A stretch of 32,000 nt of DNA from the NCBI RefSeq assembly GCF_005503145.1, contig NZ_SCNV01000033.1:1-32000 (forward strand). Reading direction: 5' to 3'. The position numbers were made by a program, and so were the translations under genes. The DNA comes from Burkholderia sp. 4M9327F10 (GTDB taxonomy: Bacteria > Pseudomonadota > Gammaproteobacteria > Burkholderiales > Burkholderiaceae). How positions within the stretch are numbered: position 1 is the first letter of the stretch; each line of letters begins with the position of its first letter. Of the stretch, positions 10,523 through 30,925 are shown one piece after another. The notes under the pieces are model-generated. The model was not told the DNA's origin, searched no databases, and worked only from the letters and a program-made list of their open reading frames with translations.

Positions 10523-13228
10523 TTAGCCGTAGAAGACCGGCATGCTGTGGTTGATCGCGCGGACTTCGCCGGCGGGTGCAGTGCGCTTTTCGTCGACGCT
10601 CATCGGTAGCAACGCGATCGTGCGCGACTCGCCGGGCGGCAGATGAAACCAGTTGTCGGCCGCGCGATAGTGCAGATCTGCAACGTTCACAAAACGCGAA
10701 AAGCGCTGTGCTTCGATCACCAGTTGCCAGCCATCGCAAGTGGCTTCGAGCGTCGCGCTGAGACCGGTGTCGCCGCGTTCGGCAACCCGCCGCTCCGGCA
10801 GATGAAAGGCCTGCGAACGAATCTGGCCGCTGCCCGCATCGCGCAGCGTGGCAATCGTCACATCGTGGGCCCGCGGGCCGAAACGATACGCATAAGTGAA
10901 ATCGAAGAACTGGCCGAGCACGTCCGCCGCGGCGAGGCGCCGGGTGCTGCGCGGGGCGAGTTCGAGCGCGATGGTTGCTGTTGCAACCTTTACGGCGCCG
11001 TCACGCAGACAGACCAGTTCAAGTTGCACAGGCAAGCTTTCGGCGGTCTCGTTGATGAGGTGCAGATCGAGGCCGTTGAGGCCCTCGTCGGTGATGACCA
11101 CCTGCACCGGGCGCCATGCCTGCGCGAGGGCGTGCCATGCGCTCTTGGGACGGCCGCTCGAGTCGACGATGCCCCAGCCGGCCCCGGGGCGCAGATCCTG
11201 AAACTGCCAGACCAGCCCGCCGCCGCACGGCGATCCGGCGCGGCGCCATTCGGCGAATACGTCCGTCATCAGCTCGGCCACCACGGCGCGCGAAAGCTCC
11301 AGGTAGCGCGGCGGATCTTCGTAACGCAGGCGGGCGGGATCGACGCCGTAGAGCGTGCTCAGGTAGTGTTCGCGGACGTCGTCGAAGTCCCAGCCGGCGC
11401 CCGGATCGCGCGGCACGGCGGCCTTCCAGCGCGGGTCGTGAACATGACTGGTACCAAGGTCGCGATGCAGCGAGGCGTCGTCCGGTACGTTGGCGAAGGC
11501 GAGGCATTCCGCCGCGAAGCGGACTTCGGCGCGCCGCACGTCGTCGAGCGGGCGCTGATAGGCGCCGACGCCGTAATAGTGGGTGATGCCGGTGCGGGTC
11601 GAAAACGGCCAGGCGCCGCCGCCCGGCGAATGGCTCACATAGTGAACATCCGGCCGCTCCTCGGCGGCGAGGGCCGGCAGGCATTCCGTGAAAAGTGGTT
11701 GTGCACGCATCGAAGGCGGCAGGCCGAGCATTGCCGCCTGCTGATCGATTTCGCTGCCGCCGCATAGCACGGCAAGCGCGGCAAAGCGGCGGGTGCGCGC
11801 GAGAAACTGGTGGGCCTCGCGGCGCACCGAGTCGATAAACGCCGCGTCGTTCGGGTAGTCGAAATTCGCAAAAGCGAAATCCTGCCAGATAAGGATTCCG
11901 TAGCGGTCGGCGAGCGCATAGAAGCGATCCGCTTCGTACACCATGGTGCCGCCCACGCGCAGCATGTTCAGGCCGGCATCGCGCGCGAGGGCAAATGCGT
12001 GTTCGAGCTGCTGCGCGGTGCCGGCGAGCGTGACGAGATCGGCGCTGGTCCAGCAGGCGCCGCGGCAGAACACGCGCACGCCGTTCACGCGCAAGGCGAA
12101 ACCTTCGCCGTCCGCGCCGCGGTCGACCTCGATGCTTCTGAAGCCCACCTCGCCGAGTTCAAAGCGTTCGCCGTCCAGTTCGAGGCAGACAGAATGTAGT
12201 GTGGGCGCGCCATGGGTATGCGGCCACCAGCGCTCGGCATGTGGCACACGCAGCTCGCCCGTGAGCGTGTAAGCATCGCTCCACACAAGAGCAGACGAAT
12301 GAAGCGTGCCGCAATGCAAGGTGGCTGGGGTTGCCGGGGTTGCAGTCACGTCTGCGCCATCCGGCACGGCGCCGCTCTGCGGGTGAAGGAAACGCAGCGT
12401 CAGCGACACGACGCCGTCGTCGCCGTCCACGCGGCTCGCGAGGTCGACCCGGTCGAAGGCCGCTGGGGCGTCGCCGAGCAGCTCGATCGGGCGCCACGGC
12501 CCGACCGCCTGGAGTGGCGGGCACCAGCCGGGCATGTGTCCGAGCAGGGTGGTGCGGACGTTGCGCAAGCCCGGCGGCGAGACGAGGCGAGGGCGCCAGC
12601 GGGCCCGCGAGCGGCGCGCGGCGAGCAGCGGCGCGAGCGAGCGGAAGCATAGGGCGAGCGTGGCCGTGCCGTTCAGTTCGAAGTCGAGATCGTGGGCGAC
12701 GAACATCGAATCCGAATCCAGCCGCTTGACGCCGTCGAGCCACACCTCGGAGAGGGTCGCGAGACCGTGCAGACGCAAGCGTTGCGGACCGTGCCCGGTG
12801 AGCGTGAGCCGGTACCAGTGATCGTCGAAGGCAAACGCCGGCGGATGGTCCGCATCGAGCCGGCCCGCGGCCCGCCACGCGGCGGCGACCGTTCCCGGCA
12901 CCTGAGCGGCGAGCCAGCCGTCGGCGGGCCAGTCGGCAGGCGACGCGCACGCGTCCGGGGACGTGCTCAGGCATTGCCAGCCGAGCTCGAGGGGACGCGG
13001 CCAGACCGTAGCCGCGGGGAGCGCGGACTCGCAGGCGCACACGGACTCGCACGCGGATTCGCACACGAGCGCACCCTGTGCCGCCGTTTCGCGCACCCGT
13101 TCAGGCGGGCTGATGGGCAAGGCGCGCACAGGGAGTCCGGTTGGTTGACGTATCAGAACGCGAGCGCGGCGAGCGGCGGCAAGGTCTCGTCGTACGCGCG
13201 CTCCAGCACGTCGAAGCAGTCGCTGCAC
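10523..13228 (-). CDS. Glycoside hydrolase family 2 (beta-mannosidase-like)
   Basis: Matches GH2 beta-mannosidase-type architecture: LELGWQC...GTVAAAW, VFCRGACWTSADL, MLRVGGTMVYEADRFYALADRYGILIWQDFAFANFDYP. The candidate acid/base region is LCGGSE and the candidate nucleophile region is FAAECLAFANVP. No obvious signal peptide. The start is uncertain: the ATG at 13228 overlaps the DUF1839 gene by 76 nt, and in-frame GTGs at 13129, 13096, 13066 and 13042 are alternatives. Confidence 0.85.
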   Translation of the reverse strand: MQRLLRRAGARVRRDLAAARRARVLIRQPTGLPVRALPISPPERVRETAAQGALVCESACESVCACESALPAATVWPRPLELGWQCLSTSPDACASPADWPADGWLAAQVPGTVAAAWRAAGRLDADHPPAFAFDDHWYRLTLTGHGPQRLRLHGLATLSEVWLDGVKRLDSDSMFVAHDLDFELNGTATLALCFRSLAPLLAARRSRARWRPRLVSPPGLRNVRTTLLGHMPGWCPPLQAVGPWRPIELLGDAPAAFDRVDLASRVDGDDGVVSLTLRFLHPQSGAVPDGADVTATPATPATLHCGTLHSSALVWSDAYTLTGELRVPHAERWWPHTHGAPTLHSVCLELDGERFELGEVGFRSIEVDRGADGEGFALRVNGVRVFCRGACWTSADLVTLAGTAQQLEHAFALARDAGLNMLRVGGTMVYEADRFYALADRYGILIWQDFAFANFDYPNDAAFIDSVRREAHQFLARTRRFAALAVLCGGSEIDQQAAMLGLPPSMRAQPLFTECLPALAAEERPDVHYVSHSPGGGAWPFSTRTGITHYYGVGAYQRPLDDVRRAEVRFAAECLAFANVPDDASLHRDLGTSHVHDPRWKAAVPRDPGAGWDFDDVREHYLSTLYGVDPARLRYEDPPRYLELSRAVVAELMTDVFAEWRRAGSPCGGGLVWQFQDLRPGAGWGIVDSSGRPKSAWHALAQAWRPVQVVITDEGLNGLDLHLINETAESLPVQLELVCLRDGAVKVATATIALELAPRSTRRLAAADVLGQFFDFTYAYRFGPRAHDVTIATLRDAGSGQIRSQAFHLPERRVAERGDTGLSATLEATCDGWQLVIEAQRFSRFVNVADLHYRAADNWFHLPPGESRTIALLPMSVDEKRTAPAGEVRAINHSMPVFYG
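13021..13075. repeat. Imperfect tandem 12-nt repeat (..GGAYTCGCA..), about 4 copies
   Basis: GGACTCGCA at 13025-13033 and 13043-13051, GGATTCGCA at 13055-13063, and a degenerate copy at 13066-13073. In the GH2 frame it encodes CESACESVCACES. Confidence 0.7.
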
Positions 13229-14169
13229 AGGTCGTGCCGCCCGCGTGCCATGGCCCGCACGAGACGGAACTGCATCACCATCGACTCCGAGGCGATCTTC
13301 TGCGCCGCGGCCGGAATCTGTGCGGGAATCTCAAAGCCTTGCACGGACAGCCACACCAGGTACTTCGAGAGAAACTCGAAGTTCGCGCCCAGTTGCCGCA
13401 TCAGGTTGAAGGAGTACAGATGGAAGAAGCCCTCGCCGCGTTCAAGCAGGGTCTCGAGCTGCTGCGGAAACTCGGCGCGCCACTGCGTGATCGGATTGCG
13501 CAGCGGGCGTCGGGCCAGATGGGTGCATAGCAGCTCCGCCGACGCCTCGGCGAGCGCGGTGCCTTGCAGCGCCGGGCGCACCTGTTTGGCGAACTCCACG
13601 TAGGGAAACAGCAGATCGGCCTGCCCCGTGAACTTCGGGAGCTTGCGAAACACGCCCTGGTAGTCTTCACCGTCCAGCACGTGATAGCCGGTGTTGTGGA
13701 AGTAGCCGAGACGCCGCGCGACGGGATCGATAAAGTCGATGCCGACCGTGGTTTTCGGATGCTCGCGGCGGTACGAGGTGGCGCGCGTGTTCGGCAGGTA
13801 GTAGCCGTCCACCTCGACCAGCACCGTATGGCCGCGCAGCGTTTGCGCCAGCACCCGCTCTTCCAGCGAATCGTAGATCGCCAGCTCCTGCACCTGGGTG
13901 CCGTAGAGCCGTTCGAGATCCTCGAGCGGGAATTTGAAGAACGTGAACTGGTCGCCCTCGAAGTCCTGCGTCGCGGTGAACGCGAAGGCGGCGCGCGGAT
14001 CGAGCCCGAAGCCGTGCAGCAGTTCGATCCACAGGTCCACGTAGCAGTTGGTCTCCTGCCAGACCCGGTCGCCCTGGTGCAGCGCATGCGGCACGTGGGA
14101 GCGCATCGGGCTGGCGGGGCCGGGTGCGCGAAGGGTGCCGTTGAGCGAGGTCGTCAGCGGGGGCGTCAT
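13153..14169 (-). CDS. DUF1839-like protein of unknown function
   Basis: Its ATG (14169-14167) overlaps the ligase TGA (14168-14166) as ATGA. The sequence HALHQGDRVWQETNCYVDLWIELLHGFGLDPRAAFAFT...DQFTFFKFPLEDLERLYG...VEVDGYYLP matches my memory of the DUF1839 family, but this needs HMM confirmation. An alternative start is the Met at 14106. Confidence 0.75.
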   Translation of the reverse strand: MTPPLTTSLNGTLRAPGPASPMRSHVPHALHQGDRVWQETNCYVDLWIELLHGFGLDPRAAFAFTATQDFEGDQFTFFKFPLEDLERLYGTQVQELAIYDSLEERVLAQTLRGHTVLVEVDGYYLPNTRATSYRREHPKTTVGIDFIDPVARRLGYFHNTGYHVLDGEDYQGVFRKLPKFTGQADLLFPYVEFAKQVRPALQGTALAEASAELLCTHLARRPLRNPITQWRAEFPQQLETLLERGEGFFHLYSFNLMRQLGANFEFLSKYLVWLSVQGFEIPAQIPAAAQKIASESMVMQFRLVRAMARGRHDLCSDCFDVLERAYDETLPPLAALAF

Positions 14170-15209
14170 GCGGCGCCTCCTGCGAGGCCCTGAGCGACGC
14201 GTGCCCTGGTATCGCCCCACAGCAGCGCCCGCACGTCGTCCGGCCAGACGTTGACGTCGAGACCGTGATGGCGGAACAGCGCGAGCGTGATGCGTTCCAT
14301 GCCGAAGCCGACGCAGCCGGTATGTGCGACCGAGCCATCTGCGCATTCGATCTTCCAGATCGCGCCGAAGTGATCCATGTGATAGTTGAACGACAGGCAG
14401 GCAGTCTTGCCGTCGGCGTTGGCGACCGGGATCAGCAACTCGAACTTGAGTGCCTGGGCGCGCTGGCTATCCGCGACGATCTTGCCGCCGCGGCCGAAGA
14501 ACGGGTCGTTGGCGAGGTCGACGTCGACCGGCAACTGCAGCATCGTCACGAGCGCCGAGCCGCGCTCGATCCACATCTGCCGGAACGCCATCACCTGTTC
14601 GGCATTGCCGAGGCGCACATATTCGCGCTGGCGGAACATCTGCATGCGCGCCGGATCGAGCGAGGGTTCGTGGCGAAAGCAATACGACAGCACGTCGATC
14701 GTGCGGCCTTCGGCGGGCAGCGGGCCGCGCCGCGCCATCACCGGATAGATCGGGTAGCAGGCGGCCGGCGTCAGCACCACCCGGGTGGGTTGCTGCTGCG
14801 CCATCCATGCGTCGCTGCGCTCGTCGTCGCGCTCGCTCATCGCATCGTCGAGCGCGCGCAACAGGCGCTGGTGGCCCATGTCGTTGCCGCAGAACGAATG
14901 GATCGTGCCGGCGAGGTTGGGAAAGCTCTTCAGGTATTCGCTGTCCTCGAAGTCGGTGCGGCGCATCGCGGGCGGAAAGCGCAGCACTTCCGGCTGCTGG
15001 TCGGCGCCCAGATGGGTGATGGCCACATTCAGGCGCTCGACCACGTCTTCGAACACCTGGCTGCGGCCGTACAGGCCGTTTTCGCCGGTATCGATCAGGA
15101 TGCCCTTCGCCAGCAGTTCATCGCGAAAGCCCGGCGCGGCGTTGCTCCCGGAGTCGGCTTGTGCTGCCTGCGCGGCGGCAAGGGCGGCGGTGTCGGTCAT
15201 CGTGTTCAT
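14166..15209 (-). CDS. Amino acid:[carrier protein] ligase, a truncated class II (methanogenic-type SerRS-like) aminoacyl-tRNA-synthetase homolog without a tRNA-binding domain
   Basis: 347 aa. Class II motif 2 is SYCFRHEPSLDPARMQMFRQREYVRLG and motif 3 is GCVGFGMERITLALFRH. Cys151, Glu181 and Cys299 sit where methanogenic-type SerRS places its Zn ligands. It is too short to carry the SerRS N-terminal coiled-coil tRNA-binding arm. Confidence 0.85.
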   Translation of the reverse strand: MNTMTDTAALAAAQAAQADSGSNAAPGFRDELLAKGILIDTGENGLYGRSQVFEDVVERLNVAITHLGADQQPEVLRFPPAMRRTDFEDSEYLKSFPNLAGTIHSFCGNDMGHQRLLRALDDAMSERDDERSDAWMAQQQPTRVVLTPAACYPIYPVMARRGPLPAEGRTIDVLSYCFRHEPSLDPARMQMFRQREYVRLGNAEQVMAFRQMWIERGSALVTMLQLPVDVDLANDPFFGRGGKIVADSQRAQALKFELLIPVANADGKTACLSFNYHMDHFGAIWKIECADGSVAHTGCVGFGMERITLALFRHHGLDVNVWPDDVRALLWGDTRARVAQGLAGGAA

Positions 15210-15210
15210 G

Positions 15211-16515
15211 TCAGGCTCTCCCCGGTGCGCCCGGACGCTGCGCGAGCAACAGGCTCGCGGTGTTTTGCGCGATGCGGTCGTTGTTGATCATCAGCGGGGC
15301 CGAGTACAGGTCGCGCAGATGCCGCCCCACGCTGTACTCGGTGCCGTTCTTGTAGCCGGCCATGCCGCAGATCATCAGGACTTCGTGGACCACCTGCAGG
15401 GCGGTGGTGGAAATGCTGGTCTTCAGCGTGTTCATGTCGGAGGCGAAGCCAAGCAGCGCGGACAGCGGCACATCGGCCTGGCACGCGCCCAGTTTGGCGT
15501 GGTGCGCGGCGCGGGCGGCGTCGAGCGCGATGGCAAGGCGCGCCTGCATCATCTGCAGCAGGCCCACGGCCTCGGCCAGGCGCAAGCCTGCCGGTGGCAC
15601 CGAGCCGGGTTTGGCACGCGCCTGGGCGCGGAAAAACGCCTTGGCGCGGTTCACCGCGTCGGTGGCGATGCCGGTCCAGACGGCGGCCCACAGCGTGTGC
15701 GAGACCGGCAGCATGGTCTGGTCGGCGATCTCGGCAAACGGCGTCGGCAGGATCTGTTCGGCACGGCCCGTCGCGACGAGACGAAAGCCTTCGCTGCAGG
15801 TGCCGCGCATGCCCATCGAATCCCAGCCGCCGCGTTTTTCCAGGGTGGTCTCGTCGCGCAGTGCGACGATCATTACCTGGTCGGCTGCGGCGGACTCGGC
15901 AGTGCGCCGCGCGGTGACGAGAATGCCATCGGCCTGGGCGCCGTACGAAATGGTGGGCGCCAGTTTTTCGATGCGCAGACGCTCAGCGTCGATTTCGACC
16001 GAGCACGCGCTGGTACGCATATTGCCGCCGATCGTTTCCTCCGAGGTCGCGGAGGCGAGCAGCCATTGCTTGTCGACCAGCTCCGCGAGCAGCGCGCAGT
16101 GCCACGGCGAGGCGCTGCCATGCGCTTCGATGCAGGCGACCTGGATCTGATGCATCGCATACACCATCGCAGTCGAGGCGCAGCCTTGCGCGAGGATTTC
16201 GCAGATGGCGGCCACATCGGCGAGCGGCAGTCCGGCGCCGCCGAAGGCCGCCGGCACCAGTGCGGAGAGCAGCCGTTCGCGGCGCAACGCGTCGAAGGCT
16301 TCGGTGGGAAAGCGTGCGTCGCGATCCACGGCGTCCGCATGTTGCGCGGCGATCTGGGCGACGCGCTGGGCGGCGGCGCGCCAGCCGGCTTCCGGCTCGA
16401 CCGCGGATAACGGCGTCGGCGCCGAGGCCGGCGCGGACGTCGCAGGAGCGGCCGCGGCGGTTTCAGCGCGTGCACCGTCGAGCGCGACGGTGTCATGCAG
16501 CAGGGGCGCGTTCAT
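15211..16515 (-). CDS. Acyl-CoA dehydrogenase-family flavoprotein (probably acting on a carrier-protein-bound substrate)
   Basis: 434 aa. ACAD N, middle and C domains are recognisable: FPTEAFDALRRERLLSALVP, SEETIGGNMRTS, GWDSMGMRGTCSEGF, ICGMAGYKNGTEYSVGRHLRDL. Its stop lies 1 nt before the ligase ATG, and its ATG overlaps the ACP stop as ATGA at 16512-16515. It has an Ala/Pro-rich N-terminal extension of about 45 aa. Confidence 0.88.
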   Translation of the reverse strand: MNAPLLHDTVALDGARAETAAAAPATSAPASAPTPLSAVEPEAGWRAAAQRVAQIAAQHADAVDRDARFPTEAFDALRRERLLSALVPAAFGGAGLPLADVAAICEILAQGCASTAMVYAMHQIQVACIEAHGSASPWHCALLAELVDKQWLLASATSEETIGGNMRTSACSVEIDAERLRIEKLAPTISYGAQADGILVTARRTAESAAADQVMIVALRDETTLEKRGGWDSMGMRGTCSEGFRLVATGRAEQILPTPFAEIADQTMLPVSHTLWAAVWTGIATDAVNRAKAFFRAQARAKPGSVPPAGLRLAEAVGLLQMMQARLAIALDAARAAHHAKLGACQADVPLSALLGFASDMNTLKTSISTTALQVVHEVLMICGMAGYKNGTEYSVGRHLRDLYSAPLMINNDRIAQNTASLLLAQRPGAPGRA

Positions 16516-16763
16516 GCCGCCGCCTTTGCCTGTTGGAGTTCGGTCACCGCGGCAGCAAGCGAATCGATGCTCGAAAAGAGCCGGCGCGTGAGCATGCGGT
16601 CGGGAATCTCGATGTCGAATTCGTCTTCGATCGCCAGCATCAGATGCACGGTTGCGAGCGACGAGAGGCCTGCTGCGTAGAGATCGGCGTCATCCGCGAG
16701 GGTCTCGGGCGCAACGTCGAGACGTGCGGACTCGGAAAGAATGCGTCGCAATGCTGTTTTCAT
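16512..16763 (-). CDS. Acyl/aminoacyl carrier protein (phosphopantetheine-binding)
   Basis: 83 aa. DADLYAAGLSSLATVHLMLAIEDEF is a PP-attachment-site-like motif (GLSSL in place of G-x-DS-L). The protein is acidic and helical-looking. GAGGG lies 11 nt upstream of the ATG at 16763. Confidence 0.85.
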   Translation of the reverse strand: MKTALRRILSESARLDVAPETLADDADLYAAGLSSLATVHLMLAIEDEFDIEIPDRMLTRRLFSSIDSLAAAVTELQQAKAAA

Positions 16764-28749: not shown

Positions 28750-29047
28750 GTCGGACTCGTGCTGTGCTGCTCTTGGGTCGCTGGTGTGCGTGAGGCACGG
28801 GCAGGCGCTCGCACAACCACGGGCTGGGTGATGGTCCCGATTGTGCAACGCGGCTGCCGTGCACAGTGTGGGCGGCCGTACAGATAGGCCGAGCCGCGTT
28901 TGATGTAATTCCGACAAATACCTGACAGACCCGATTTCGTACTCGCACATTCGCAGAGGCGAACTGCGGCGACGCCGATCCGACCGCGCCATGGACTCTC
29001 GTTCCCAGGCGCCTCGATCCGGTTACGCTCTCGCACAAGGACACAAA
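28750..29047. promoter_or_regulatory. Divergent intergenic region between the acyltransferase/wzx unit (-) and the hydrolase/methyltransferase unit (+)
   Basis: 298 bp with no credible ORF. Contains the inverted repeat TGTGCA-N12-TGCACA at 28842-28865. Confidence 0.45.
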
Positions 29048-30925
29048 ATGAAACCTGTCGTCTTCGACGGCTGTGTTGGCTGGCTTCATCCAGCCGAGGG
29101 GCAACATGGGGTGGTCCTGTGCAATCCGTTCGGCTATGACGCGCTTTGCACCCACCGCGGCTGGCGAGCGCTCGCGGAACGTCTCGCGGCAGCGGGCCTG
29201 CCGGTCTTGCGCTTCGACTATCCGGGCAGCGGCGACTCGCTCGGAGATGAAGAGGAGCCGGGCCGGGTGGCGGCGTGGCTCGACAGCATCGGCGCGGCGA
29301 TGCGCTTTCTGAGGCAGTCGGCCGGGGTGACCCGGGTGTCGCTATGCGGCTTGCGCCTGGGCGGCACGCTGGCGGCGCTCGCGGCGCAGCGTTCGGGTGA
29401 GGTGGACGCTCTGGTGCTGCTCTCGCCGGCGCTCTCGGGTAAGAACTATCTGCGCGAATTGCGGGCGCATCGGCAGAGCTGGCTGAGCACGCCTGCGGGT
29501 ATGAACGCCGAGCCGATTGCGGATTCTGCCGCGTATGTCGAAGCGTTCGGTTTTGGCCTGCATGGCGAGGACATTGCGCAACTTGGCTCGGTCGATCTAC
29601 GTGCGGACACTACCGCTCCTGCGCGCCGCGTGCTGATGCTCGCGGCGAACGATCAGAGCCGCGCCGCGGCACTGGTGGCGCACTACCGCGCGAACGGGGT
29701 ACAGGTCGAACAGCAAGGGTTCGACGAGGCCGACCGGTTTCTGCTCGAGGCCCTGTACAGCGAAGAGCCGGTACAGGCCTTTGCCGCGCTCACGCAGTGG
29801 CTGGCTGAGACGCCTGCGCCTGAGGCGGGCGCTGTTGCCGCAGTTCATGGCGATGCTTGTGCCGATGAATCGTCCACGGGGTCTTCCACCGAGTCTTCCA
29901 CTTTAAGGCTCGCAAGCGAACACGCGGTCGAACGTCCGATTGTCTTCGGCGCTTACTTCGGCATCTACTGTCAACCCGATGTCCCTTGCGAGGGGGCGCC
30001 TGCCGTGTTGTTCCTGAATACCGGTGCGAGCCACCATATCGGTGACGGACGGATCTTTGTGCTGTTCGCGCGCCGTCTCGCGGCGCAGGGGATCGCTTCG
30101 CTGCGCATGGACCTGGGCGGTCTCGGCGACAGCACGCCGCTCGCCCAGGCGGTGACGCTCGACACCATCTATTCGCAAGCCTCGTGTGCTGATGCGATGG
30201 CCGGCGCCGACTGGCTGGCCAGCAGCGGACACGAACGCATCGTCACCTTTGGGGTGTGCGGCGGCGCGTTTAACGGCCTGCATGCATGCGCGAATCATCC
30301 ACGTATCGCGGGCTGCTTCGGCGTGAACCTGCAGAAGTTCATCTGGGATGGCGCGGCGCGTACGCCGGGCACCGCAGGCCTCGCATCGAACCGTGTATTG
30401 CGGCGCTCGGCCATGAGTCTTGCCAAGTGGCTGCAGGTGTTGCGCGGCGAGTCGTCGCTATGGCGCGTGATACGCGGTCTCGCGCAACGGCTCGGCCGCA
30501 GCCTGTTCGTGCGCGCAGCCGATCTGCTCGAAGCAGGGCTCGGAATTTCCATTGCACCGAACGAGGCGAAACGTCTCTTGCAGCGCATCGATGCGAAGGG
30601 GGCGCAAGTGCGGCTCGTATTCGGCGAGTACGACCTTGGGCTCGACGAACTGAAGATCGAGTTCGGCGCGCAGTTGCGCGGGCTGCGCCGTTTTTCGCAG
30701 GTGCGCGCCACGACCTTGCCGAAGCTCGATCACGCGCTGTTCACGCGCGCGGCGCGCGAGGCGGCGATGACCGACGCGCAGCAGTGGCTATTCGAGTGCC
30801 TTGTCGCGGCGCCGGCGCCGCACGGCGAAGTGCCGCATCCGGCGCCGCTCAGTGTGGCGGTTTGCGCGGCCGTGCCGGATGGATCGGCTCTGTGTGCTGC
30901 CGGTCTCGATCAGGCGCGTCAATGA
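29048..30925 (+). CDS. Fusion of two alpha/beta-hydrolase-fold domains
   Basis: AAGGA lies 7 nt upstream of the ATG. N-half: GVVLCNPFGYDAL...LPVLRFDYPGSGDS...SLCGLRLGGTLAA. A Ser/Thr-rich linker (DESSTGSSTESST) follows. C-half: PAVLFLNTGASHHIGDGRIFV...LRMDLGGLGDS...VTFGVCGGAFNG...LPKLDHALF. Confidence 0.8.
   Translation: MKPVVFDGCVGWLHPAEGQHGVVLCNPFGYDALCTHRGWRALAERLAAAGLPVLRFDYPGSGDSLGDEEEPGRVAAWLDSIGAAMRFLRQSAGVTRVSLCGLRLGGTLAALAAQRSGEVDALVLLSPALSGKNYLRELRAHRQSWLSTPAGMNAEPIADSAAYVEAFGFGLHGEDIAQLGSVDLRADTTAPARRVLMLAANDQSRAAALVAHYRANGVQVEQQGFDEADRFLLEALYSEEPVQAFAALTQWLAETPAPEAGAVAAVHGDACADESSTGSSTESSTLRLASEHAVERPIVFGAYFGIYCQPDVPCEGAPAVLFLNTGASHHIGDGRIFVLFARRLAAQGIASLRMDLGGLGDSTPLAQAVTLDTIYSQASCADAMAGADWLASSGHERIVTFGVCGGAFNGLHACANHPRIAGCFGVNLQKFIWDGAARTPGTAGLASNRVLRRSAMSLAKWLQVLRGESSLWRVIRGLAQRLGRSLFVRAADLLEAGLGISIAPNEAKRLLQRIDAKGAQVRLVFGEYDLGLDELKIEFGAQLRGLRRFSQVRATTLPKLDHALFTRAAREAAMTDAQQWLFECLVAAPAPHGEVPHPAPLSVAVCAAVPDGSALCAAGLDQARQ

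Follow-up and report, generated by a model that had tools for sequence, protein, structure and literature searches.

How an amino acid that has been charged onto a small carrier protein is taken off again is the question raised by a five-gene cassette in a 32,000-nucleotide stretch of the genome of Burkholderia sp. 4M9327F10 (contig NZ_SCNV01000033.1, positions 1 to 32,000; hereafter the window). The cassette encodes a carrier protein, a flavoenzyme of the acyl-CoA dehydrogenase (ACAD) fold, an amino acid:[carrier protein] ligase resembling seryl-tRNA synthetase (SerRS), a DUF1839 protein and a protein of glycoside hydrolase family 2 (GH2). Ligases of this kind were reportedly shown in 2010 to charge carrier proteins, and the homologues characterised by Mocibob et al. 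in that year are said to use Gly or Ala. We know of no work to date that settles what becomes of the charged carrier, and no answer was found in the literature that we searched. A preliminary description of the window, made from the sequence alone, had put forward the DUF1839 protein as a cysteine-dependent enzyme that off-loads the carrier. Our analysis favours a closely related reading, to which we give a probability of about 0.6: DUF1839 is a carrier-protein-dependent acyl transfer enzyme (transacylase) that depends on Cys42, with the acceptor left unspecified.

The open reading frame (ORF) named in that description was borne out, its translation being 338 amino acids long, and it belongs to the Pfam family DUF1839 (PF08893; E = 2.2e-131, 438.2 bits against a cut-off of 22.5, residues 23-334 on profile positions 3-312/313). 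This was the sole family retrieved by a Pfam scan of the protein at E <= 10, and NCBIfam returned none. The start codon (ATG, 14169-14167) shares an ATGA at 14166-14169 with the TGA that ends the upstream ligase gene, and is preceded at a distance of a few bases by a GGAGG. A longer ORF of 397 amino acids, reaching up to 14346, was rejected as the gene start, being merely an in-frame 5' extension within the ligase gene. Since neither a signal peptide nor a hydrophobic stretch was found at the N-terminus of the translated sequence, we take the protein to be cytoplasmic. The genome carries one copy each of the DUF1839 and ligase genes, and the nearest relatives of the DUF1839 protein are Paraburkholderia proteins of 85-89% identity.

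DUF1839 is coupled in the genome to the carrier protein and its loader. Among 401 Pseudomonadota genomes, in which the ligase was counted above its curated cut-off, DUF1839 was found in 16, and in all 16 the ligase was present and immediately adjacent. All five cassette genes were present at each of 15 fetched loci (14-20 kb each), in the order carrier protein, ACAD, ligase, DUF1839, GH2 at 14 of them and rearranged at the fifteenth (L067). The ATGA overlap in the window points the same way, and at the loci examined a Cys-bearing DUF1839 always adjoins an aminoacyl-carrier loader. The GH2 gene lies directly 3' of DUF1839 and is part of the cassette at 15/15 loci, so that the earlier view of DUF1839 as the only remaining coupled gene was mistaken.

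The ligase also occurs without DUF1839, in eight further genomes of the 401. There the gene following the ACAD-ligase pair encodes an Abhydrolase_3 protein (2 genomes), a pyridoxal phosphate (PLP) enzyme of the Cys/Met type (2) or a class IV aminotransferase (1), with nothing identifiable in the remaining 3, which suggests alternative fates of the charged carrier. The ORFs 3' of the ligase at loci L030, L031 and L034 are probably not genes, having no Pfam match and no similarity to DUF1839. Apparent fusions of the ligase with DUF1839 (P0256) and of DUF1839 with GH2 (P0243) were not counted as evidence, as both are metagenomic gene calls and possible artefacts; P0256, which is 43% identical to the window ligase over 242 residues, contains a frameshift-like stretch, and in P0243 DUF1839 is joined to the GH2 N-domain.

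An AlphaFold2 model of the protein, built from an alignment of 93 diverse full-length DUF1839 homologues (32-54% identity), reached a mean confidence (pLDDT, predicted local distance difference test) of 93.8 and a predicted template modelling score (pTM) of 0.90. It consists of a papain-like alpha/beta domain followed by a helical bundle, the two-domain architecture of the CtaG-like and CcbD-like transacylases. The core is of the papain-like (clan CA) type, in which a helix begins with the nucleophile; helix 42-53 of the model begins in this way with Cys42, at the place that marks the nucleophile in papain. Strand 139-148 starts with Thr140, and strand 153-158 ends with His158.

A Foldseek search of this model against the PDB, a check that the preliminary description had named, gave 19 matches at E <= 0.001, which come from three proteins only and all span the whole chain (327-369 alignment columns, template modelling (TM) scores of 0.57-0.64). 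The top match was AziU3/U2 (E = 4e-8, TM 0.58-0.59), followed by CtaG (E = 2e-7 to 1e-6, TM up to 0.64) and CcbD (E = 6e-6 to 8e-5, TM up to 0.62); full-length matches were thus solely to proteins linked to carrier proteins. For CtaG, carrier-protein-dependent acyl transfer by way of a covalent acyl-Cys intermediate has been proven (PMC7183216, PMC12865890), and both CtaG and CcbD are Cys-dependent ping-pong transacylases acting on carrier-bound acyl groups (PMC7183216, PMC12865890, PMC12945683). In the case of CcbD/LmbD, a carrier-bound aminoacyl group is passed to the catalytic Cys and from there to the amine of a thiooctose sugar (PMC12945683). AsbE, BtrH and MllDE belong to the same structural class as CtaG (PMC12865890). 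The likeness to papain-like and BtrH-type enzymes noted in the preliminary description therefore stands for the bipartite fold, papain-like domain plus helical bundle, of the BtrH/AsbE/CtaG/CcbD group, but not for a canonical Cys-His pair or for a match to BtrH_N.

The helical domain adds a further point of likeness. Arg305 is here the sole invariant residue of DUF1839, and it lies in a basic stripe whose other members (K/R297, K/R302, K/R311) are conserved too. Arginines on the C-terminal helices of CcbD (Arg312/316/324) dock the carrier protein (PMC12945683), and by analogy with that helix the stripe, including Arg305, is a putative carrier-docking surface.

Beyond the three full-length relatives, Foldseek matched the N-domain only, at E >= 0.03, to phytochelatin synthase, a C39-like peptidase, cathepsins and calpains. 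A papain-like N-domain, also recognised in the literature (PMC10318531), might suggest an ordinary cysteine peptidase that cleaves proteins or peptides, which we regard as highly improbable: the canonical His is missing, the structural matches to peptidases are weak and partial (E >= 0.25), and the protein is cytoplasmic, has its start coupled to the loader and, when it bears the Cys, never occurs without a carrier-protein system. The papain-like fold is nevertheless primarily hydrolytic, as the cathepsin, calpain and C39-like matches illustrate, and an esterase-type Abhydrolase_3 gene takes the place after the ligase in two ligase-only genomes. Both observations would fit a hydrolase resembling type II thioesterases, in which the Cys42 acyl-enzyme would be resolved by water to release a free, possibly oxidised, amino acid with no acceptor acylated. 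We consider this improbable, as the full-length structural relatives with known acyl chemistry are all transferases (PMC12865890, PMC12945683), and as both the size and enclosure of the two-domain structure and the strict gene linkage to GH2 argue for a second substrate.

The conservation of Cys42 across the family, which the earlier reading presupposed, is high: position 42 is Cys in 89 of the 93 diverse homologues (96%), with 3 Ser and 1 Gly. The residue lies in the motif WQETNCYVDLWIELLH (residues 37-52), and its codon had been placed correctly, as TGC read from 14046 to 14044 on the minus strand. Of the two histidines in the downstream segment YFHNTGYH (residues 156-163), to which attention had also been drawn, His158 is conserved in 91/93 homologues but His163 is variable (H 29, F 28, Y 24). 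Equally conserved are residues that had gone unmentioned, His137 (91/93) and Thr140 (Thr or Ser in 92/93), and, in the same set, Asp45 (90), Asp121 (92) and Asp127 (91). The window protein itself carries Asn at position 127, in common with about 50 close Paraburkholderia relatives, which keep the full motif set. Papain itself has an Asn at the position that orients its His, and Asn127 would therefore be an acceptable substitute if residue 127 has this role.

An alignment of family profiles with hhalign laid the invariant His of the BtrH family (FNAH) on Thr140, within the invariant segment H137-x-K-T140-T of DUF1839. From this register and the strand topology, His158 would take the place of the triad Asp, in agreement with the active site C(T/S)H given for DUF1839 in the literature (PMC10318531). 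The canonical Cys-His arrangement that the preliminary description had expected is thus replaced by one in which Thr140 stands at the His position and His158 is third. We therefore do not count the protein among the canonical CtaG/BtrH enzymes; it belongs to the DUF1839 family and most likely works like them.

At the level of sequence the connection to these enzymes is faint. Searches of solved structures with the single sequence or with the 93-sequence profile found only designed coiled coils and noise, and Pfam BtrH_N (PF14399) did not match the DUF1839 protein even at E <= 10. With hhalign, DUF1839 aligned to 13 BtrH_N-family proteins taken from genomes over 275 columns at a probability of only 17.8% (E = 0.0014), and to five DUF6005 proteins at 3% (E = 0.015) with Cys on Cys, all of these alignments being shallow. 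A control comparison of two accepted relatives, DUF6005 (AsbE-like) and the BtrH family, was equally weak (probability 21%, E = 0.001), so that hhalign lacks power with such shallow alignments and a low probability is not evidence against homology. Despite the low probabilities, the alignments of DUF1839 to both families are long and sensibly registered. The DUF6005 proteins bear the annotation 'petrobactin synthase' and in many cases are fusions with a carrier domain, which fits AsbE/MllDE, and DUF6005 has been described as a remote homologue of DUF1839 (PMC10318531).

A separate line of evidence comes from relatives that have lost the cysteine. Of 117 close homologues (>= 60% identity), 85 carry Cys at position 42, 19 have Ala there, 8 Gly, 4 Ser and 1 Arg; Asp45, Asp121, His137 and Thr140 are invariant (117/117), and His158 is kept in 115/117. 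We examined the genomic context of seven Cys-less proteins (a set that does not include the four non-Cys members of the 93-sequence alignment), in which Cys42 is replaced by Ala, Gly, Ser or Arg, and in all seven the adjacent ligase and ACAD-like genes are absent. Three Caballeronia-type loci have lost carrier, ACAD, ligase and GH2 altogether; two Paraburkholderia loci have kept the carrier, joined to DUF1839 directly or via a 34-codon remnant, and have lost the other three genes; one locus has only a 33-codon remnant upstream of DUF1839; and one, situated on a short contig, has no upstream ligase. A Cys-bearing Caballeronia protein, from the same genus as some of these orphans, sits within a complete cassette, and a complete cassette with a Cys-bearing DUF1839 was found at 14/15 genome loci, the exception being genome G364.

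The number of independent losses behind this pattern is probably small. The orphan genes occupy one syntenic site (GNAT, DUF1839, Crp, WcaJ), and since the Cys-less lineages are also related, few loss events, not seven independent ones, have to be assumed; on the other hand, the differing end-points of the deletions and the four replacement residues argue for more than one. We interpret this to mean that the step at the carrier thioester is what specifically requires Cys42, and that the remainder of the protein retains some use independent of the Cys.

Several observations weigh against an off-loading transacylase. The canonical Cys-His-Asp/Glu triad is absent and, with Thr at the His position, the activation of Cys42 remains a proposal. 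AziU3/U2, the best structural match, has the CtaG fold but is functionally unrelated and is not a transacylase (PMC12865890). The three Caballeronia orphans evolve under strong purifying selection (ratio of nonsynonymous to synonymous rates, omega, 0.08-0.14 by the Nei-Gojobori method, at a synonymous divergence, dS, of 0.5-0.6), which implies some use of the fold that does not involve the Cys. The in-cassette DUF1839 of G364 lacks the Cys, Thr140 and Asp127 (C42R, D127Q, KTT to RAC); a second G364 copy, on a 2.5-kb contig, has the Cys, Asp127, Thr140 and His158 motifs intact. The failure of the sequence-level searches and the absence of any BtrH_N match belong here as well.

Some of these points could be accommodated if DUF1839 were not the off-loader at all. 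It would then either carry out another reaction on the tethered substrate, as AziU3/U2 does, or serve as a Cys-independent binding or scaffold subunit, with transfer to a glycan left to the GH2 protein or to a tandem alpha/beta-hydrolase. The permuted triad, the non-transacylase top match and the selection on Cys-less orphans are all in keeping with such a role. So is the distribution of the tandem alpha/beta-hydrolase, which directly follows GH2 at 10 of the 15 loci, is fused in one family to a Wzx-like domain with a glycosyltransferase family 4 (GT4) gene upstream, and has a full-length homologue in the window (31-34% identity to the post-GH2 homologues elsewhere). Its nucleophile elbows read G-L-R-L-G in the first domain (no Ser) and G-x-C-x-G in the second (Cys). 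We nevertheless think it unlikely that DUF1839 is not the off-loader: a residue that is 96% conserved and is replaced in every examined relative without the ligase is hard to explain if the Cys is irrelevant, and the alpha/beta-hydrolase is missing from 5/15 cassettes and from a Rhizobium plasmid locus as annotated. The hydrolase may be regarded either as a serious rival or as a second step in delivery to the glycan. In sum, the fold, the conservation of Cys42 and the adjacency of the loader support the earlier idea of a Cys-dependent carrier off-loader, while the missing canonical triad, the Cys-less clade under selection and the alpha/beta-hydrolase as a second candidate count against it.

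If DUF1839 is a transacylase, the following scheme can be proposed. The SerRS-like ligase would charge the phosphopantetheine arm of the 83-residue carrier protein with a small amino acid, and the ACAD-fold flavoenzyme may then modify the tethered aminoacyl group. The loaded carrier would dock at the basic face of the DUF1839 helical domain, and the acyl group would pass to Cys42 by thioester exchange. An acceptor nucleophile, presumably activated through the Thr140/His158 pair, would finally attack the acyl-enzyme, in a ping-pong reaction like those of CtaG and CcbD. As acceptor a sugar or glycan is most likely, processed jointly with the GH2 protein that is always linked; it is possibly an amino sugar, and in the window it would probably be a unit of the surrounding exopolysaccharide.

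The nature of the transferred group may be glimpsed from the flavoenzyme. Among proteins of solved structure it comes closest to a short-chain ACAD, to the amino-sugar N-oxygenases KijD3, DnmZ and ORF36 and to the monooxygenase DszC, each of these matches being weak (E = 1e-7 to 1e-12). From these similarities the enzyme may be an oxygenase rather than a dehydrogenase, and its proximity to amino-sugar N-oxygenases means that the transferred group may be an oxidised aminoacyl group.

The whole cassette in the window is embedded within an exopolysaccharide locus of the Wzx/Wzy type, which encodes Wzc, Wza, a glycosyltransferase of family 2 (GT2), a WcaJ-type priming transferase, a Crp-like regulator, a GNAT protein and a Wzy-like protein, together with several GT4s, a GT9, Wzx, an AT3-SGNH acyltransferase, the tandem alpha/beta-hydrolase and a methyltransferase. 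A plasmid of Rhizobium leguminosarum, by contrast with the preferred exopolysaccharide acceptor, carries the five genes by product name with no polysaccharide genes listed nearby in the PLSDB gene table for NZ_CP018235.1, which is incomplete; such an acceptor would therefore not be general, and this is a further point to be set against our reading. The five-gene module appears to be self-contained and mobile.

The last gene of the cassette in the window, GH2, appears to have kept two Glu-containing motifs, GGSE and AEC, in an alignment to the beta-mannosidase 5n6u. Its start is ambiguous between an in-frame GTG at 13228, which would overlap the end of DUF1839, a GTG at 13129 and a TTG at 13120; the GH2 genes of relatives begin a few bases past the DUF1839 stop. 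The positions of all features are collected in Table 1.

Table 1. Positions of the DUF1839 gene, its proposed functional residues, the other cassette genes and related genes elsewhere. Positions without an L number are those of the window; L numbers denote loci from other sources.
Feature	Position	Strand	Basis or remark
DUF1839 gene, 338 amino acids, candidate carrier-protein-dependent transacylase	13153..14169	-	PF08893, AlphaFold2 model, Foldseek
N-terminal papain-like alpha/beta domain, about residues 25-200	13570..14097	-	model secondary structure; N-domain Foldseek matches
C-terminal helical bundle, about residues 203-334	13168..13563	-	model secondary structure
Cys42 codon TGC, proposed acyl-accepting nucleophile	14044..14046	-	model helix start; 89/93
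Asn127 codon	13789..13791	-	Asp in 91/93 homologues, Asn here
Thr140 codon, putatively at canonical papain His position	13750..13752	-	hhalign vs BtrH-family His115; T/S 92/93; PMC10318531
His158 codon (YFH158N), putatively third (Asp/Asn) triad position	13696..13698	-	91/93; strand end; PMC10318531
Carrier protein, 83 amino acids, GLSS phosphopantetheine-attachment motif	16512..16763	-	NF005480, E 8.5e-38; sequence
ACAD-fold flavoenzyme (modifier)	15211..16515	-	profile matches and weak solved relatives
Amino acid:[carrier protein] ligase, SerRS-like	14166..15209	-	NF005479, E 6e-160, 531 bits vs cut-off 357
GH2 beta-mannosidase-like, last gene of five-gene cassette	10523..13129	-	E 1.5e-40 to beta-mannosidase 5n6u
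Tandem alpha/beta-hydrolase	28991..30925	+	31-34% identity, E 4e-66 and 8e-65 to post-GH2 homologues elsewhere
Tandem alpha/beta-hydrolase homologues	L065 12958-14688; L054 14386-17697		seen across Pseudomonadota
Orphan Cys-less DUF1839 genes	L068 8001-9023; L087 5001-6047; L088 5001-6026; L071 7001-7993; L086 5001-5993; L072 7001-8038		Caballeronia and Paraburkholderia
G364 DUF1839, degenerate	L053 9477-10397		in intact cassette
G364 DUF1839, second copy	L003 127-1077		on 2.5-kb contig
Post-ligase genes in DUF1839-less genomes	L035 2435-3451; L036 509-1498; L038 2413-3723; L039 171-1487; L037 2923-3834
Rhizobium leguminosarum plasmid cassette (L090)	NZ_CP018235.1, 155752-161566		between transposase and thioredoxin genes; conjugative plasmid

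The idea of an off-loader in this position is not new. A note added in proof to a Biology Direct paper of 2010 described a neighbourhood of a carrier protein, a redox enzyme, a SerRS paralogue, a conserved ORF, a glycosidase and polysaccharide genes, and predicted that the redox enzyme modifies the aminoacyl group and that the tightly linked ORF (e.g. Atu2574) makes the amide linkage to the amino group of a sugar at the cell surface (PMC2922099). From the gene order we infer that Atu2574 is the DUF1839 gene. The off-loader idea is therefore a rediscovery of a prediction published in 2010. A paper of 2023 in the Journal of Biological Chemistry placed DUF1839, with the C(T/S)H site and the same neighbours, among the papain-like families and suggested a role connected with fatty acids or phospholipids, or an acyl-CoA-dependent one connected with glycans (PMC10318531); beyond it, no further DUF1839 papers were found in the literature searched. 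Neither the 2010 nor the 2023 paper makes a link to the solved structures of CtaG, CcbD and AziU or describes the joint loss of Cys and cassette, and the structural link to CtaG/CcbD and the Cys-loss pattern appear to be new.

What the present analysis adds is the full-length structural match, the mapping of Thr140 to the His position calibrated by a control, a quantified gene linkage, the Cys-loss pattern and the association with the alpha/beta-hydrolase, and its value lies in this added structural and comparative support, not in discovery. An off-loader with a defined nucleophile, in a context of polysaccharide and glycosidase genes, makes the fate of the charged carrier directly testable. 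A permuted Cys-Thr-His site would also widen the catalytic repertoire of protease-like ligases, which is of interest for the engineering of amide-bond formation.

Among known systems, the lincosamide condensation enzymes CcbD/LmbD (PDB 7yn1, 7yn2, 9dkr, 9dks) resemble DUF1839 over the full length, and DUF1839 has a basic stripe analogous to theirs; however, CcbD has a Cys-His-Glu triad as opposed to the proposed Cys-Thr-His, the sequence identity is 11-16%, and its donor is loaded by an adenylation system of the nonribosomal peptide synthetase type, whereas the DUF1839 cassette has a SerRS-like ligase. The closthioamide transacylase CtaG (PDB 9quz, 9qvj and others) and AsbE, BtrH and MllDE share with DUF1839 the two-domain build and the N-terminal Cys at a helix start, and the carrier-bound donors of the CtaG class have their counterpart in the carrier and loader encoded by the cassette. 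Unlike DUF1839, these enzymes have a canonical Cys-His-Asp triad, and sequence profiles barely connect them to it. AziU3/U2, the aziridine-forming enzyme of azinomycin biosynthesis (PDB 7wuw, 8gs1), gave the best Foldseek match, and its presence on the same fold means that the fold can carry chemistry other than acyl transfer.

The closest parallels in overall logic lie elsewhere. DltABCD and AlmEFG likewise combine a loader, a small carrier protein and a transferase that delivers to a glycoconjugate of the cell envelope (teichoic acid and lipid A, respectively). Their loaders, however, are adenylation domains, and their transferases are a membrane-bound O-acyltransferase (MBOAT; DltB) or of the lipid A acyltransferase type (AlmG), not papain-like. 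A more far-reaching interpretation, which we offer as speculative and rather doubtful, is that the five-gene module constitutes a third carrier-dependent system for the aminoacylation of cell-surface glycans, mechanistically distinct from Dlt and AlmEFG. DUF1839, with a permuted Cys-Thr-His site, would in this case attach a Gly- or Ala-derived, possibly N-oxidised group to a lipid- or nucleotide-linked sugar, and a biological role would be given to the amino acid:[carrier protein] ligases known since 2010. The orphans without the Cys would then form a derived offshoot that is not thiotemplated and has its own function.

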